Source: Lytechinus pictus (taxonomy: Eukaryota). From it: a DNA stretch of 64,000 nucleotides. The position numbers were made by a program, and so were the translations under genes. The DNA is taken from NCBI RefSeq assembly GCF_037042905.1, contig NC_087245.1, forward strand, positions 30,506,001-30,570,000, given 5' to 3'. Shown here piece after piece: positions 9,256 through 59,445 of this stretch. Positions within the stretch are counted from its first letter, which is position 1. Each line of letters begins with the position of its first letter. The notes beneath the pieces are model-generated. The model had not been told where the DNA came from and did no database searches. It was given only the letters and a program-made list of their open reading frames with translations.

Positions 9256-10176
9256 CTATCCATATCCAGCAAGGAGGAACTTTTTCTTATGTCTACAGGT
9301 AGATATGAGTTCAGTTCGAGAGTTCAAATTGTTGTTTCTGTTTGCTGTGATGATGAAGTATTTCTCCCATAGGCAGAGGTTGCAGCGTTTTGTGAGTGGA
9401 GAGTAGGGTTGTGCATGGCGTACGATTCTCCAGGTTATCTTGTGGGGTGTGCCCTCATCTTTCAGTTTCCAGATATGCTTACTGAGCTCGGTGCTGTGCC
9501 TCTTCTCTTTATCTTTAAATGACGCTTTGTGAGATGCATGTCTGGTTTTGAATGTGGTGGCGGTCAGTCCGATGTAGGATTTTTCGTCGTGGGGGGTGGT
9601 AACTTTGGCTTCGTAGATCACGTTTTTTGTTGCGCATTTTCCTGGTAGAGGGCAGTCTTCTGTTTTCCGGCAGTTGCACTTTTCGGTTTCTCGGCTTTTT
9701 TCTGTTGTCGATACTTTGTTGTTGTGTGCCTTTATGGATTTGCCCATGTTATCCATGCAGCTGTAGCTTATCTTTAGGGTGTTTCTGTTGCAGATTTTAT
9801 GGAGTTCATGTTCCTTGGGGAAGTGTTGGTCCACCAGGGCCAGAAATCTTTTCCCGATGTTTGTGTTGACATTTTGGCTATATGGCGGGTTGAACCAGGT
9901 TATCGTCCTTTTCCTTTTCTGTTGGCTTGGCCTTGTATCCGTGTTGTTCTTGGGGTTGTAGGTGAGGGTAGCATTGTGGCCTGCTTCGTTCAGGGCTTTT
10001 TCGTATTCCGGTTTGGCATTGTTGAATATTTCCTCGCTGCTTGAGATGTTGGATAGTCGGGTTTCTATGGATTTGGGTATTCTTTTGGTGATGCTGGGTG
10101 GGTGGTTGGATTCAACATGAACGTACGTAGGGGTGTTTCCTGGTTTGGCGTATGGCTTGTATTCCATCTTGGTCAA
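9256..10176 (-). CDS. Penelope-like RT C-terminus and GIY-YIG endonuclease (open fragment, no true start)
   Basis: 306-aa uninterrupted frame with GIY-YIG motifs; RT catalytic core absent. Confidence 0.85.
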   Translation of the reverse strand: MTKMEYKPYAKPGNTPTYVHVESNHPPSITKRIPKSIETRLSNISSSEEIFNNAKPEYEKALNEAGHNATLTYNPKNNTDTRPSQQKRKRTITWFNPPYSQNVNTNIGKRFLALVDQHFPKEHELHKICNRNTLKISYSCMDNMGKSIKAHNNKVSTTEKSRETEKCNCRKTEDCPLPGKCATKNVIYEAKVTTPHDEKSYIGLTATTFKTRHASHKASFKDKEKRHSTELSKHIWKLKDEGTPHKITWRIVRHAQPYSPLTKRCNLCLWEKYFIITANRNNNLNSRTELISTCRHKKKFLLAGYG

Positions 10177-10882
10177 AGGGTTTTGCGAACCATACTTGTT
10201 TTTCTAGAAAGAGTTAGGCGAATAACATAAAAATATATTGATCATATATATATACATGTATATAATTAGAATTACAATTTCAGAATTTTGAGTGAAAAAC
10301 CTTCCCTTAAAATTCATAATATAATTATGGATTTAGTCCCTTCTTCATAAAAACTAATTTCAAGTTGTTGCTATGTCAGGCAAAGCTTCTTCATGTAACT
10401 AGTGTAATGTAACAATTTCAACATCTAGACCGATAATAGGAAGGCTAGGGGAATTGAAAAGTACTGTTATGTCCATGCTAAACCTTTTGTTCAGCTCTTA
10501 CCCCTCTTGAATTTTCATGCAAAAGGGACTAAATCCAAATATATATATAAAGATGATTAATTTAAATGAAAGACATTTGAAGGATTTGTTTAACTGTCAT
10601 TTTTATAACCTATTTAGAAAGAAAACTTCCTGAATGGAAACAAACTTGGGTGAAAAAAAAAATGATTTATGAAGATTGAGCAAAGGTGTTTCGGGTTTAG
10701 TCCGTTTGCATGAAAACATGAATTTCACATCAATTTTTAATAAACATCTTCAAACTTTTTTGATGCACATGGTGAATGTCTATCTGAACATGCAAAAAAT
10801 GCCAAATGGTGAAAAATTTATTATACATTACTAGTATATGTGTATATATATATATACATATGTATGTATGTTTATATATATA

Positions 10883-17625: not shown

Positions 17626-20600
17626 ATGGGGGAAATGACCGGTATTATACCACCTTGTATGGACTAGAAGTCCCAAGATCCTCCGTCATCTTTTCAGAAT
17701 TTTAGACAATATTGTGAAGTAATTTTCAAAGGTCCATTGTCAAAGAAATCAGATGAAGAGAAATGCAATTATACTCTCCTGTGGCTAGGACAAGAAGGGA
17801 TACAAGTATATAAGTCCTGGGCTAAGGAATTCAAAACGCCTGATGAGATTTTTGAAGCTTTCTCCAAGCATTTTGAGCCTAAATCAAACTTCCGTGTGAG
17901 TAGATTCAACCTCCAGAAGTTCAGACAAGATCAACATGAGACAGTTGATGATTTTGTGGCCAGGTGTAAACTTCAAGCAAGGAAGTGCAAGTTTACAGAT
18001 GCTGAAATGGAAGAACGTCTCATCGAACAACTCATCATTGGAACCAAGCATGTCAAGGTTCAAGAGAGACTCTTAGGAAAAGACGAGACACTCAAGCTGG
18101 ATGCAGCACTTGACACGGCCAGGACACATGAAGCAACAGAAAGCCACATGAGCATGATGAAGGCTGTTGGGAACCCCAAGATGAACATGGACGCAGTTCG
18201 AAAGAAAACACACACCGAAAGTAAATGGCAGAAGAAATGCCAAAACTGTGGTAGATCTCATCCGAGTAAGCAGTGCCCAGCATATGGTACCCAATGTCGC
18301 GGATGTGGAGGACAGAACCACTGGCAGAAGTGTTGCAGGAAATCTTCCCAAGGAAAGAAAACCACCTCGGGAAAATCATATCAGAAGAAGCAACAGGGTG
18401 AGAAGTATGAGATGGGACCAAAGAAATACCAAGGTCGCCATTCATCAAAGCAAGTCCATGAAATGCAAGAGGATGATTATCCAGAGGACGAGATTGAAGT
18501 ATGCAGATTTGAGACAATTACTATCGATTACATTGAGAAGGATGAAGCTTTTGCAGACATCGATATCATGCTTAAGCCAAAGAAACCAGCAGTCCTAAAG
18601 GTTAAAGTGGATACAGGAGCCCAAGGAAACCTCCTACCTTTACGTCTGTATAAGCTAATGTACACAGACCGAGTGGGCAAAGATGGCCGACCACTACCTG
18701 GGATGCTCAAGAAGTCAAGGACAATTGTTACAGGATATGGCCAGAAGGTTATACCATTGCTCGGAATCCACACAATCACATTCATGCGAGGCAACAAGAA
18801 GATTGACGCGAGATTCTATGTGGTGAATGCTGATGGACCAGCCCTAGGAGGATTGCCATTATCGCTGAAGTTGGGTCTTGTGAAAATGAACTGTGAGGTG
18901 AAGGAGTCCTCAGACTGCACTATCACAGACAAGGAGCAGTTGAGAAAACTCTACCCTGATCGATTTGAAGGCATAGGACAGTTCAGTGGAGAATATCACA
19001 TAGTCATTGATAAAGATGTACAGCCTGTCATACACCCTGCAAGGAGATGTCCAATACATATCAAAGATGAGATAAAACAAGAATTGGACGAGATGGAAAA
19101 ACTAGATGTGATAGAGCCTGTTTTCGATCCAACAGATTGGGTATCTAGTTTGGTTTATGCCCAGAAACCAAATGGACGTTGGCGTGTATGTCTGGATCCC
19201 AAAGACCTCAACAAGGCAATCAAGCGAGCGCATACCACAATTCCTAACCTAGAGGAGATAAAACACAAGTTTGCAGGAGCTCAGGTATTTTCAACGCTCG
19301 ATGCCAAGCACGGATACTGGTCAATAAAGCTGGATGATGAATCAAGTACCCTTACTACCTTTAACAGTCCATTCGGCAGGTACAAATTCAAAAGACTTCC
19401 GTTTGGATTGTCTGTATCCCAGGATATATTCCAGCAGAAGATGGACCAGATACTAGAGAAATGTCCGGGGGTAATAGGCCTAGCTGATGACGTCGCCGTC
19501 ATTGGAGCAAACTCAGAAGAGCACGACCAGAATCTACACCATCTCATGCAAGTAGCAAGGGAACATGGTCTAGTATTCAACATAGAGAAGTGTAGAATCA
19601 AGAAGGACCAGATCCGATTCTTTGGATTGATTTTTGACAAGGATGGTGTTCACCCAGACCCTCGGAAGACTGCAGCCATTGATGCCATCAAGGCACCAGC
19701 AAGTACGAAGCAGTTACAAGAGTTCCTCGGAATAGTGACCTACATGTCTCCATTTATCCCCAACCTTGCAACACAAACAGCTCCACTTAGAGAGTTGATG
19801 AAGAAGGATGCAATCTTTGCATGGACAGCATCGCATCAACAGGCATTCGAGTCCATCAAGAAGCTGATCAGTGATGAAGTTACCCTAGCGTACTTCAATC
19901 CTGAGGAAGATGTGGTGATCGAAGTTGACGCTTCATCTAGAGGACTCGGGGCTGCCTTGACACAGAAAGGCAGACCTATAGCCTTTGCATCAAAGTCACT
20001 GACTGACACAGAGAGAAGGTACGCCAACATCGAGAGGGAAATGCTCGCTGTGATATTCGCTTGCGAGAAATTCCATACATTCGTGTATGGCAAGCCATTC
20101 AAGATTCTTTCTGACCACAAGCCACTTGAGATGATTCATCTAAAGAACCTCGGAGCAGCTCCCCCAAGGTTACAGAGGATGCTTCTACGCCTTCAAGGTT
20201 ACGATGTAGTCATCAAATACAAGCCTGGACGTGAGATGTTGTTATCAGACGCAATGTCCAGACTCAATCCCCTGCCAGGTCCGACTATAGAAACACCAGT
20301 GCGCATCAATCATGTCATGTTTTCTGAAGAGAAAATTCAGCAAGTTCGAAATGCAACTGCCCAAGATGATGAGTTATGCGCATTGAGAGATGTCATCCTT
20401 CAAGGTTGGCCTGGAGATCGACGTGATGTAGCACAACCACTGAGAAAGTACTGGGCATACCGAGATGAATTGTCCATTGAAGATGGTGTGTTGCTCAAGG
20501 GGTCAAGAGTGTTCATTCCAAAAGCCATAACACAAGAGTTTCTAGACAAACTACACGATGCACATCAAGGAGTGATAAAAAGCCAGCTACTAGCCAAAAA

Positions 20601-21621
20601 TTCCATCTACTGGCATGGCATAAATTCACACATTGAAGAAAGAGTGAAGTCATGTCCAATATGCCAGCAATATGGAAAGTCACAAACACCAGAACCACTG
20701 CATCCTCATGACATCCCGACAAGACCTTGGCAAGTCATCGCAACCGATCTATTTCACCTGGATGGGAAGGAGTATCTGTTGGTTGCGGACGTCTACTCCA
20801 AGTTTCCGATCTTGAAGAAACTCCAGCATACAACAAGTGCCAATATCATCAGTTTGATCAAAGAAATATTTTCAGAACAAGGCACACCTGAAAAGTTATT
20901 GAGTGACAATGGCCCACAATACAGTAGCGCACAGTTCAAGACCTTCGCTGAAGAATGGAGGTTCACTCACATAACCTCAAGTCCAAGATACCCCCAGTCC
21001 AACGGTTACATTGAACGACAGGTCAAGACCATCAAGACGACAATGATGAAAGCAAAGCAAGCCAAGCAGGACATCAACAAAGCCTTGCAATACTTGCGAG
21101 CCACTCCCATTGACCATCACCTACCATCACCAGCAGAAATACTGTTAGGCAGGAAGATACAATCAGATCTTCCAACTAGGATCAGAAACCACGATCCTAA
21201 CAGAGACGCTATCAAAGAACGCCTCCAAGCAAGACAAGATCAGCAGAAGACCTACTATGACAGGAACACACGTTCCCTTCCACCACTACATCAGGGACAA
21301 CAGGTTCGAGTGCAGAATCAGGAGAGCGGAAAATGGGAAAAAGGAACAATCCTTAACAAGAGACCTGAACCTAAATCTTATGAAGTACGAACACCTAGTG
21401 GTCAAACTCTACGCCGCACCCGTAGGCATATCCGGGAAACCGGAGAAAAACATGAAACCCAACATGAAACAGAACAGGTCATTCCACAGCCTGATCATGA
21501 CAGTACTGATGCAAGTAGTGATACACTCAATTCACAAAAGTTCAGTGACAAACAAACTCAAAACACATATATCACTAGATCAGGTCGTCATGTGCACAGA
21601 CCTGAACGTTTTGACCCTTAA
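17626..21621 (+). CDS. Gag-Pol polyprotein (Gag with 2 Zn knuckles, protease, RT, RNase H, integrase); in-frame TAG at codon 14
   Basis: ATG 17626 is in frame with ORF 17737-21621. Motifs: CQNCGRSH..C and CRGCGGQNH, DTG protease, RVCLD/LDAKHGYW/LPFG/LADD RT, DAS/SDH RNase H, H..H/CPIC with D,D,E integrase. Order PR-RT-RH-IN. Confidence 0.93.
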
Positions 21622-24775: not shown

Positions 24776-25199
24776 GTACAAGTAGCTAGCTATAGGGCCT
24801 ACATTTAACAGTCATGGCCCGATCGAATGGTTACAGCCCGATAGACCGCGGGTCCGATAGACCGCGGGTCCGATAGTCCGCGGGTCCGATAGACCGCGGG
24901 TCCGATAGACCGCGGGTCCGATAGACCGCGGGTCCGATAGTCCGCGGGTCCGATAGCCCGCGGGTCCGATAGACCGCGGGTCCGATAGTCCGCGGTGTGT
25001 GTAAAATTATGATCAGGATATAGTGAGATCCAATGCCATCAAGAGGTCAAAAGGCCAATGATACGAGTCCATGGGGTTCTATAACGATGACCCAAAGGAC
25101 AATCGCCCCCTGACATCTACTTCAAGGAAAATATTATCCCCATATTTTTATCGTCAGGGACTGTTACCCCCCCCCCGGAAATTTACCCTCTAGACGCCA

Positions 25200-32990: not shown

Positions 32991-34304
32991 TGAGCTGGGG
33001 GTGGGGGGGGGGTGAGGCAGTTCCCCCTTGGCCCCCCATGGATCCGCACCTGATAGAACCCCATGGCCTCGTATCATTTTACCTTTGGACCTCTCGATGA
33101 CATTTGATATATCTGATCATAATTTTACACACACTGCGGACTATCGGACCCGCGGTCTATCGGACCCGCGGACTATCGGACCCGCGGTCTATCGGACCCG
33201 CGGTCTAACGGACCCGCGGTCTATCGGACCCGCGGTCTATCGGACCCGCGGTCTATCGGGATGTCCCCGATCGAATGAATGATCGAAGAGCCGTGATAGT
33301 GTAATTATAACACATAAAAACACACACAAAACAATGTGCCGATCTCCGCGGCAGAAGGAGAAGAGGAAAGAAAAGACAATGTAGAAAGAAAGGAAGGAAG
33401 GATAGGAAGGAAGGAATTAAGGTGAAGGAAGGAAGGAAGAAAGAAATAATTAAAGAAAGGAAGGGAGGAAGGAAGGAAGGAGGATGGAAGAAAGAAAGAA
33501 CTGGAGAGGAAAAAAAGGGGCGAAATGTTACAGCAAGGAAGGCCTATGGGGGAAATAAAGAATTAAAAGGAGATTTGAAAAAAAGAAAGAAGAAAGAATG
33601 TACTTTTCTACGGGATGCTCATTGGCCACTATCCTTCAGAAGCGCATGAGATTTTGAGTACAACTCTCGATTCAGTGTTAAAATTGTCAGGTTTCCCCTT
33701 ATCTTTCAAATTGCATCTAATTGCCTCCTTCTGAGCATAACATTTGTCATGGGAAAATAATTCACACTACATAATTATGTCAGGGTCAGGAAGAAATAAT
33801 GTGAAATATGTAAAATAAAGGGGGAACAACTTGAAAACAAAACTTTGCGGAAGCATGTTTGCCAATTTGAGCTGGATCCCCATAAAAAGTACAACATTAA
33901 GGCTTTTCGCAATAAACTTCCAAAACTCGCTTATTCTATTAACCGATTTTGATGAAAGTTTTATAATAGATTGCTCCTCTCATTTTATTCTTTCTGATAA
34001 GATGGGTTCTATATAGGTGTATTTATTGGTTTCCTTTGCATTTTTTCTCCTCGTCCTCTTCCTCCCTATTCTTATTCTTCTTCTTAATTCTAGCTTCTTC
34101 TTCTTCCATCTTCGATCTCCTCACAGTTCTGATGATCTTCTCCTCCTCCTCTTCCTCTCTCTTCTTCTTTTTCCCTCTTCTCCTATTCTCTTTCTTCTTC
34201 TCCCTCTTCTCCTCCTCTCCTCGATCCTCTTCTGATTTTCTCTCTGATTTTTTTCTTCTTATATATATATATATACAATGATATATGTATATATATATAT
34301 ATAT

Positions 34305-34816
34305 ATATGTGAAGTTATACATGTACTACAGCTTTGGCAACTCTTTTATTTAAATATTGCGTAAGCTACGCCTACCATTGTTCTCTTCATCCATTTCTTT
34401 CACACAATATTTAAATAAAAGAGTTGCCAAAGCTGTAGTACATGTATAACTTCACATATTTATATACATTTCTCCCATACGTGTACTGTATCAAAGCAAT
34501 ATAGCTTTGATCCAGCTGAGGCATGGCGGCTTGTCATTGTTCAAAACCCACCTTCACCCGACAAAGGAAATTATAATTGGTATGGTGTCGAAAATCTGTC
34601 TATCTGACGGTCAATCGGATCGGGGTCGCCCTAGCCACTAACCCGTCTCTGTGGTCTAGTGGTTAAGGCACCGGCGTTCAAAGCTGGGGGCTCGGGTTCG
34701 ATTCCCGGCAGAGACATTTTTTCGGCATCACCAATTTTTCCAAAGGGTAGATAGCTCTGGGGAACCTTGATTTAAGCTACGCCTACCATTGTTCTCTTCA
34801 TCCATTTCTTTCACAC
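34305..34816. mobile_element. Penelope-style non-autonomous partial tandem unit carrying a tRNA, set in (TA)n
   Basis: 44-bp direct repeat (34362-34405 = 34773-34816, period 411 bp), 55-bp inverted end (34305-34359 vs 34405-34459), (TA)n on both sides. Confidence 0.55.
34645..34716 (+). tRNA. tRNA or tRNA-like gene, anticodon TCA (opal-suppressor-like, not Sec fold)
   Basis: Acceptor GTCTCTG/CAGAGAC, D stem GTCT/AGGC, anticodon stem CCGGC/GCTGG with loop GTTCAAA, 4-nt variable loop, T arm TCGGG-TTCGATT-CCCGG; A and B boxes; TTTTTT at 34717-34722. Confidence 0.7.

Positions 34817-34847
<31 letters not shown>

Positions 34848-35222: not shown

Positions 35223-59445
<24,223 letters not shown>

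Follow-up and report, generated by a model that had tools for sequence, protein, structure and literature searches.

An opal-anticodon tRNA fold inside a Penelope-type repeat of Lytechinus pictus: a possible RNA handle acting in cis

Introduction

Animal non-LTR retrozymes are non-coding and consist of tandem units, each a few hundred bases long and low in GC, which occur as anything from monomers to long arrays (PMC7229834). They are related to the pseudo-LTRs of Penelope-like elements (PLEs) and are proposed to be mobilized by PLE enzymes (PMC7229834; 10.64898/2026.07.22.740005); their defining feature is a type I hammerhead ribozyme in each tandem unit. The insertions of EN+ PLEs are characterized by 5' truncation, partial tandems, an inverted 5' piece, an optional 3' tail and (TA)n or microsatellite targets (PMC8557442). 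The Naiads, reported in clams and spiders, recode UGA by means of a SECIS and the host tRNA-Sec (PMC8557442), the latter having a 9/4 fold, a long variable arm, a length of 90-101 nt and G73 (PMC5330540). Helenus/TRIMp3 elements are non-autonomous retroelements that have a tRNA-like module inside them, and they include families that give rise to false suppressor-tRNA predictions; in some rust fungi, Helenus LTRs, which keep A and B boxes, account for all predicted tRNA-Sup-CTA genes (Kojima, 2024; PMC10886601).

Here, we describe a repeat found in a 64,000-nucleotide stretch of Lytechinus pictus DNA (the window; assembly GCF_037042905.1, contig NC_087245.1, positions 30,506,001 to 30,570,000). 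Like the retrozymes, it is non-coding, low in GC and built of tandem units a few hundred bases long, from monomers to long arrays. Judged by its sequence organization, it works like a non-LTR retrozyme, yet it lacks the hammerhead core and carries instead a full tRNA gene with a terminator, directly upstream of what is probably the position of a decayed ribozyme. The word 'tRNA' does not occur in the available text of the preprint by Li, Clavereau & Pollet (2026; 10.64898/2026.07.22.740005). In its insertion anatomy the repeat resembles EN+ Neptune-type PLEs and the non-autonomous MRC1 (PMC8557442), and its 3' segment has a weak resemblance to hammerhead-bearing families of the same genome, but unlike EN+ PLEs it has no ORF and carries a tRNA gene. 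It shares with the Naiads the (TA)n targets, the lack of a hammerhead and the involvement of UGA; nevertheless, Naiads are not described there as tRNA carriers (PMC8557442), and a partial survey of the present genome found no Naiad-type ORF. Helenus is an LTR element with a PBS, a PPT and 4-5-bp TSDs (PMC10886601), whereas the repeat has PLE-type ends and covaries over its whole cloverleaf, its copies being truncated tandems and inversions in (TA)n rather than paired LTRs. With tRNA-Sec (RF01852) the repeat tRNA shares the UCA anticodon, but it is 72 nt long with a 7/5 fold, A73 and no long arm. In tRNA-derived SINEs, high-copy retroposed repeats with Pol III A and B boxes, the tRNA head stands at the 5' end and the tail is LINE-like; here, the tRNA is internal and followed at once by T6, a LINE-like tail is absent, and tandem and inverted insertions are the rule. 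The literature searched, with subscription papers and Repbase largely outside it, contained no description of an intact tRNA gene in a PLE-type repeat.

Results

The tRNA fold in the window

The sequence-only reading of the window had described a cloverleaf with A and B boxes, U33, a TCA anticodon, A37, a T6 run, a 4-nt variable loop and an unusual G32, and all of these were confirmed from the sequence, by ARAGORN, by Rfam and by minimum free energy (MFE) folding (Table 1). ARAGORN calls the module as the only tRNA in the window. Against RF00005 it scores 57.7 bits (gathering threshold 29, E 7.8e-10) with no non-standard pairs marked, and its MFE fold is the cloverleaf, at -28.8 kcal/mol (z -2.1). 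The 72-nt module keeps 21 of 21 stem pairs and has the canonical-tRNA features of a cloverleaf, both boxes, U33, a purine at position 37 and a terminator, as well as A73. Position 34692 is T in this copy and C in most copies; the first T-stem pair of the window copy is therefore U.G. No CCA follows the discriminator in the DNA copies read. The earlier distinction from tRNA-Sec was also borne out, since the fold is 7/5 over 72 nt and Rfam lists no tRNA-Sec match in the window; the genome contains two genuine tRNA-Sec genes elsewhere (76.9 bits with RF01852), and the repeat tRNA is not among the matches listed.

In decoding tRNAs a pyrimidine at position 32 is the rule, and the host Gly, Glu and Lys tRNA genes that we fetched have C or T there. 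The repeat tRNA breaks this rule, with G32 in its young family (Y) and in 18 of 20 copies of a sister family (O). A separate hairpin is predicted 3' of the tRNA at 34743-34785 (+), between two AGCT motifs; one of its pairs is changed on both sides between O and Y.

Table 1. Coordinates, in window positions, of the tRNA-bearing insertion and its parts
Feature	Position	Strand	Remarks
(TA)n target microsatellite, left flank	34260..34308	.	
Inverted, 5'-truncated piece	34309..34362	-	Extends to the second of the fixed 3' ends; 5' inversions of this kind are characteristic of PLE insertions
Full repeat unit, about 411 bp	34362..34772	+	Young family Y
tRNA module	34645..34716	+	7/5 cloverleaf, 4-nt variable loop, G32, TCA at 34678-34680, discriminator A
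A box of tRNA module	34652-34662	+	
G32	34676	+	Read from sequence
U33	34677	+	Read from sequence
Anticodon TCA	34678-34680	+	Read from sequence
A37	34681	+	Read from sequence
B box of tRNA module	34695-34705	+	
Discriminator A	34716	+	
T6 run, Pol III terminator-like	34717..34722	+	Directly 3' of discriminator
Probable decayed hammerhead	34723..34757	+	Colinear with the hammerhead (core, stem III) in Neptune-type PLE ends; catalytic core missing
Partial next unit to first fixed 3' end	34773..34816	+	Pseudo-LTR-like 44-nt direct repeat
AAGCTACG motif	34774-34781	+	Common to several hammerhead-bearing PLE families
(TA)n target microsatellite, right flank	34817..34847	.	

The carrier repeat and its insertions

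The genome searched comprises 812 Mb in 368 contigs. A 31-mer spanning the D arm and the anticodon arm has 1,827 exact matches in it, against 0 for the reversed control, which bears out the earlier claim that a repeat carries the tRNA; with up to three mismatches there are 2,495. When the 7-nt anticodon loop was left free, 1,919 matches were found, 1,827 of them (95%) with the same loop. At least one long satellite-like array, on contig C2, contributes to these copy counts. This array of the tRNA repeat (C2:8866000-8867300 onward) has a period of 406 bp and at least 38 units, and begins at the normal 3' end in (TA)n.

The tRNA occupies positions 282-353 of the unit, which has no long ORF. Among 122 scored 3' ends (83 insertion clusters), 98 lie at two sites about 52 nt apart, approximately 100 and 150 nt past the T6 terminator, whereas the 5' starts (n=120, 83 clusters) are scattered over the unit. 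Tandems and head-to-head inversions are common, and (TA)n flanks are present in the window and at most loci read. The insertion pattern is that of EN+ Penelope-like elements: a fixed 3' end with an optional tail, 5' truncation, partial tandems, 5' inversions and a microsatellite target. It was rightly proposed that the tRNA is no ordinary SINE head, being internal, with T6 directly 3' and 5' ends that are not fixed at it. The suggested link to Penelope-like elements stands for the carrier, on the grounds of insertion anatomy, but so far not for Naiads and in-frame UGA.

No viral, prokaryote-genome or metagenome contig matched the longer patterns from the repeat, giving no sign of a foreign origin; a shorter pattern had 28 metagenome matches and one viral match, in none of which a tRNA was present, and no relatives were seen in the other genomes scanned. 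A divergent subfamily had been proposed from variants in RNA reads and was rejected, as these have no genomic match.

The window also contains Argonaute exons (ArgoN, ArgoL1; 41090-44523, +), with the tRNA repeat about 6 kb upstream of the first exon seen, and an uninterrupted ORF of 1,317 aa with the gypsy-type domain order gag-RT-RNase H-integrase (17668-21621, +). Two arrays of 16-bp units (24838-24995 and 33136-33259) lie 8 kb apart in opposite orientation and are possibly the ends of a foldback-type element.

PLE families of the genome and a probable hammerhead relic

A GIY-YIG search of the genome gave at least 142 matches (150 of 468 candidates scored), to which a protein search was added. 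Several PLE families with RT and C-terminal GIY-YIG domains were recovered, most of which we take, from their motifs, to be Neptune-type. At their 3' ends a minimal hammerhead is followed by a tail that gives way to (TA)n at one of two sites, which lie about 50-63 and 86-126 nt from the ribozyme, and several hammerhead-bearing PLE 3' ends share the motif GCTACG with the repeat. In many hammerhead-bearing families two 3' end sites are about 35-60 nt apart, and these elements often adjoin copies of the tRNA repeat in the same TA tracts.

The hammerhead core CTGANGA is absent from both strands of the repeat unit, and Rfam finds no hammerhead there. When the 3' segment of a young copy was aligned with 12 hammerhead-plus-tail ends, 8 of the 12 gave a shuffle p<=0.05 and 4 gave p<=0.01, with no correction for multiple comparisons; family O copies were weaker in the same test (2-4 of 12 at p<=0.05). 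The aligned ribozyme position falls immediately 3' of the T6 run, and GATAGCT at 34750-34756 stands opposite GAAAGCT of hammerhead-bearing PLE ends. With moderate confidence, given the modest alignment, we conclude that a decayed hammerhead probably lies directly 3' of the tRNA.

The PLE families read include no near-identical autonomous partner or 3' end, the similarity being weak and colinear. One candidate partner, L193, was rejected: the DNA upstream of it belongs to a distinct repeat of LTR type, which at 18 other loci does not continue into the unit. The search for RT ORFs with in-frame TGA, which the sequence-only reading had suggested, found no family-wide TGA in the PLE ORFs examined. 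Seventeen of 18 intact RT-to-endonuclease frames have no in-frame TGA, and the remaining one has a lone TGA at a codon that is Cys in sister copies. An N-terminal endonuclease of the Naiad type was not found in 13 further GIY-YIG matches or in the other GIY-YIG matches read in this partial survey.

The window has a PLE of another clade (9259-10203, -; 3' end to about 9000), which is 5'-truncated with its endonuclease end intact and has no Pfam match. A minimal hammerhead core lies near 9070-9050 with (TA)n about 50 nt later, and relatives with open frames of 600-800 aa occur in the genome. This second clade gave 126 matches; most of the best are without a stop, and the stops present are of mixed types. 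At locus L102 (C2:50584000-50593999) the units of a PLE tandem recur every 2,664 bp, a length divisible by 3, and its ORF enters the next unit in frame, through three TGA and no other stop; UGA read-through would fuse the ORFs, although the arrangement may be due to chance.

Families O and Y and selection on the fold

Sister family O, which is much older than Y, has at least 47 matches (40 of 184 candidates scored), and 20 copies were fetched, chosen because the match covered the anticodon loop. Between the O and Y majorities, 10 of the 72 tRNA sites differ without an indel (14%), against 70 of 260 flank sites (27%) plus 28 gap columns (Fisher p 0.028); the tRNA has thus changed at half the rate of its flanks. 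The eight stem differences comprise three double changes (2-71, 6-67 and 28-42) and two wobble changes with no broken pair (p 0.0017 under a transition-only null), and the A and B boxes are identical. The compensatory stem changes that the earlier reading had said should be looked for are therefore present between the two families. In an alignment of 12 copies, 94% of cells are paired compared with 36-49% in slid controls; cloverleaf pairing was counted directly because in the RNAalifold structure the D and anticodon arms were wrongly paired. The three pairs changed on both sides do not exceed shuffles (145 of 500 reach this number), and the sequences are related.

Since the tRNA changes more slowly than its flanks and has compensatory pairs in O, the fold is under selection. 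In young copies, private changes amount to 0.0086 per site per locus in the tRNA and 0.0074-0.0128 in the flanks. The constraint between O and Y, set against this flank-like drift, indicates that selection acts on source copies rather than on inserted ones. The covariation thus shows a cloverleaf maintained by selection on source copies.

Parentage of the tRNA

Identity to host tRNA-Gly(TCC) is 53/72 for O and 49/72 for Y. Host tRNA-Glu reaches 44-45/72 with O, by which it was ruled out as the parent; with Y it reaches 48 and 44/72, a small margin. Among the host tRNAs compared, a set without Trp, Arg, Cys, Asp, Gln and His, tRNA-Gly(TCC) appears to be the closest; Gly(GCC) was excluded, its alignment being out of register. 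Relative to host Gly(TCC), and provided that this parent is correct, the repeat tRNA has seven double changes with 21 of 21 pairs kept. The host Gly pair G3-C70 and C36 are both changed in the repeat tRNA. In yeast, the glycine identity elements are C35, C36 and the pairs 2-71 and 3-70, while C34 is a tryptophan determinant (PMC9976931).

T6 is the majority state in family O and in every layer examined. In one of three host Gly genes fetched a T run follows the discriminator at once, and in a second gene the run comes close behind it; the terminator may therefore have been inherited. A host tRNA-Lys array at C4:9.70-9.74 Mb includes one variant, at overlapping loci, which ARAGORN reads with a TTA (ochre) anticodon.

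History of the anticodon

TCA is the state of the family (1,827/1,919) and is also present in the older family O, so that it is not private to the window copy, as a check proposed with the sequence-only reading had asked. A relaxed pattern revealed a minor layer of mid-age repeat copies with a TCC anticodon: 54 genome-wide hits consist of 27 repeat copies and 27 host tRNA-Gly(TCC) genes. Position-36 variants with an intact 3' side (n=22) have C in 16 cases, G in four and T in two. The TCC copies are older, with a mean divergence of 5.2% (n=16) compared with 1.6% for sampled TCA copies (n=78), and have older flank states in common. A sample by an old flank marker took 20 further copies, the first on C1-C4 out of 69 hits once four that belonged to the earlier samples (three TCA, one TCC) had been set aside; the 16 of these 20 that were readable by eye have A36 in 13 and T36 in three, with no C36.

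In the 20 family O copies, the loop has T34 in 20, C35 in 19, A36 in 20, G32 in 18 and G37 in 20, and ARAGORN reads TCA in 13 and TTA in one, with no call in six. G32 is present in all layers. Variation in the loop among O copies is 1/120 versus 6.9%, a low value that was set aside as evidence because the copies had been chosen by a BLAST match through the loop. A private or recent point mutation to TCA was ruled out by its presence in family O and in mid-age Y copies. From these sequences, either TCA would have persisted from the O/Y ancestor with TCC as a side branch, or it would have arisen twice from a Gly(TCC) ancestor; trees of copies, which have weak backbones and a single O copy past the filter as outgroup, do not separate the two. 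The occurrence of TCA in O, mid-age Y and young Y copies suggests more persistence than would be expected of a free position. Nevertheless, three anticodon bases unchanged at 27% divergence have a chance probability of about 0.4, which is not significant alone.

RNA reads and breakpoints

Two raw RNA-seq runs with the same species label (150-nt paired reads, 12.9 million each) contain 1,964 and 1,361 reads on the repeat unit, about equally from both strands. Neither run has a pile-up of starts or ends on the unit, although such reads are uninformative on a 72-nt product. Reads from both strands and free of pile-ups fit copies embedded in host transcripts. Tail-to-head joints are present in the reads; genomic tandems would also give them. 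Nine of 120 5' breakpoints fall within 8 nt of the tRNA start, compared with 4.9 expected (p 0.052, duplicated loci included), and form no clear pile.

Discussion

The explanation that we favour, and to which we give an even chance of being right, is that the tRNA is a processing or stabilizing handle acting in cis, which replaces the hammerhead on a non-autonomous, probably Neptune-type PLE, in a retrozyme-like unit. The unit would carry an intact Pol III-type tRNA gene, descended from a tRNA-Gly(TCC)-like ancestor, directly upstream of a hammerhead that has decayed. A PLE RT-endonuclease would act in trans, copying the element RNA into TA microsatellites from either of the two 3' sites about 52 nt apart. 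The cloverleaf could then serve as a handle on the element's own RNA for host factors that process or stabilize tRNAs, e.g. RNase P or RNase Z, and the fold may thereby do the job that the hammerhead does in sister families. The opal anticodon, together with G32, would shield the RNA from glycyl-tRNA synthetase and from decoding of sense codons, rather than being a device for reading UGA. Of the two roles that the sequence-only reading had put forward, an opal-decoding tRNA or a tRNA fold used as a processing signal, the latter is the better supported, though by indirect argument.

A tRNA captured once by a PLE end and kept as a neutral passenger, with TCA as an inherited accident, would agree with the toggling at position 36 and with young copies in which the tRNA gathers private changes about as its flanks do; it seems improbable in view of the halved rate between O and Y, where there are no indels, three double changes and no broken pair, and, if the parent is right, of the seven double changes from tRNA-Gly(TCC) with every pair kept. 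Because the stems covary, a function at the RNA level is favoured. This also argues against a tRNA that serves only as a Pol III promoter or a TFIIIC-bound chromatin barrier, the template arising by terminator read-through in tandems and the anticodon being irrelevant, as a promoter at the DNA level has no need of compensatory stem changes. The identical A and B boxes in O and Y and the slight surplus of 5' breakpoints near the tRNA start are what such a role would predict, and it has been proposed for TRIMp3/Helenus, Cassandra and SINE heads, with the A and B boxes of Helenus LTRs as a precedent (PMC10886601). On the other hand, T6 has stayed the majority state in every layer examined although its loss would help to make a template, and the fixed 3' ends lie well past the terminator; we consider the promoter or barrier role unlikely, but worth keeping in view.

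The remaining reading, a working opal suppressor, would have Pol III transcribe a 72-nt tRNA up to T6, which would be matured, charged and used to read UGA for a partner element or at host termination codons. The intact boxes, the 21 stem pairs, U33, the purine at 37, A73 and the immediate terminator are all as such a tRNA should have them, and TCA is found in both families across 27% flank divergence, whether it persisted beside a TCC branch or was gained twice. Yet G32 occupies a position where decoding tRNAs have a pyrimidine, and the glycine identity elements have been lost, while C34 is a tryptophan determinant (PMC9976931); for G32 and the loss of glycine identity we disfavour charging and decoding. 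Furthermore, no UGA-containing partner was found among the PLE ORFs examined, the TCC layer (27 repeat-type hits) has spread as well, copies change roughly as fast as their flanks, and the three unchanged anticodon bases could be due to chance. Some 2,000 active suppressor genes would also be likely to damage the host. A trans-acting suppressor also gives its source copy no edge over competitors; since selection among source copies rewards effects in cis, a cis role is favoured. A working suppressor is accordingly improbable, and we likewise think it improbable that the UGA-reading anticodon was kept, or reached twice, because the tRNA gene is truly expressed, matured and charged. If it were a suppressor, about 2,000 transposon-borne opal suppressors would increase read-through at stops, in competition with both termination and the insertion of selenocysteine. 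A charged tRNA would represent a natural, transposon-borne opal suppressor in an animal, of which the literature searched yielded no case.

The handle in cis has weak points of its own. The 5' breakpoints do not clearly pile up at the tRNA start, the RNA reads have no pile-up of starts or ends on the unit, and a terminator retained immediately 3' of the tRNA would be explained equally well or better by a tRNA product that stands alone. The persistence of TCA, the modest alignment of the hammerhead relic and a tRNA that in young copies is no more conserved than the flanks also weigh against it.

For the annotation of this genome, the repeat explains about 2,000 false 'tRNA-SeC' calls. If the tRNA is indeed a handle acting in cis, a retroelement would have swapped its self-cleaving ribozyme for a host tRNA fold, and the role of the hammerhead in Penelope-like elements could be compared within one genome.
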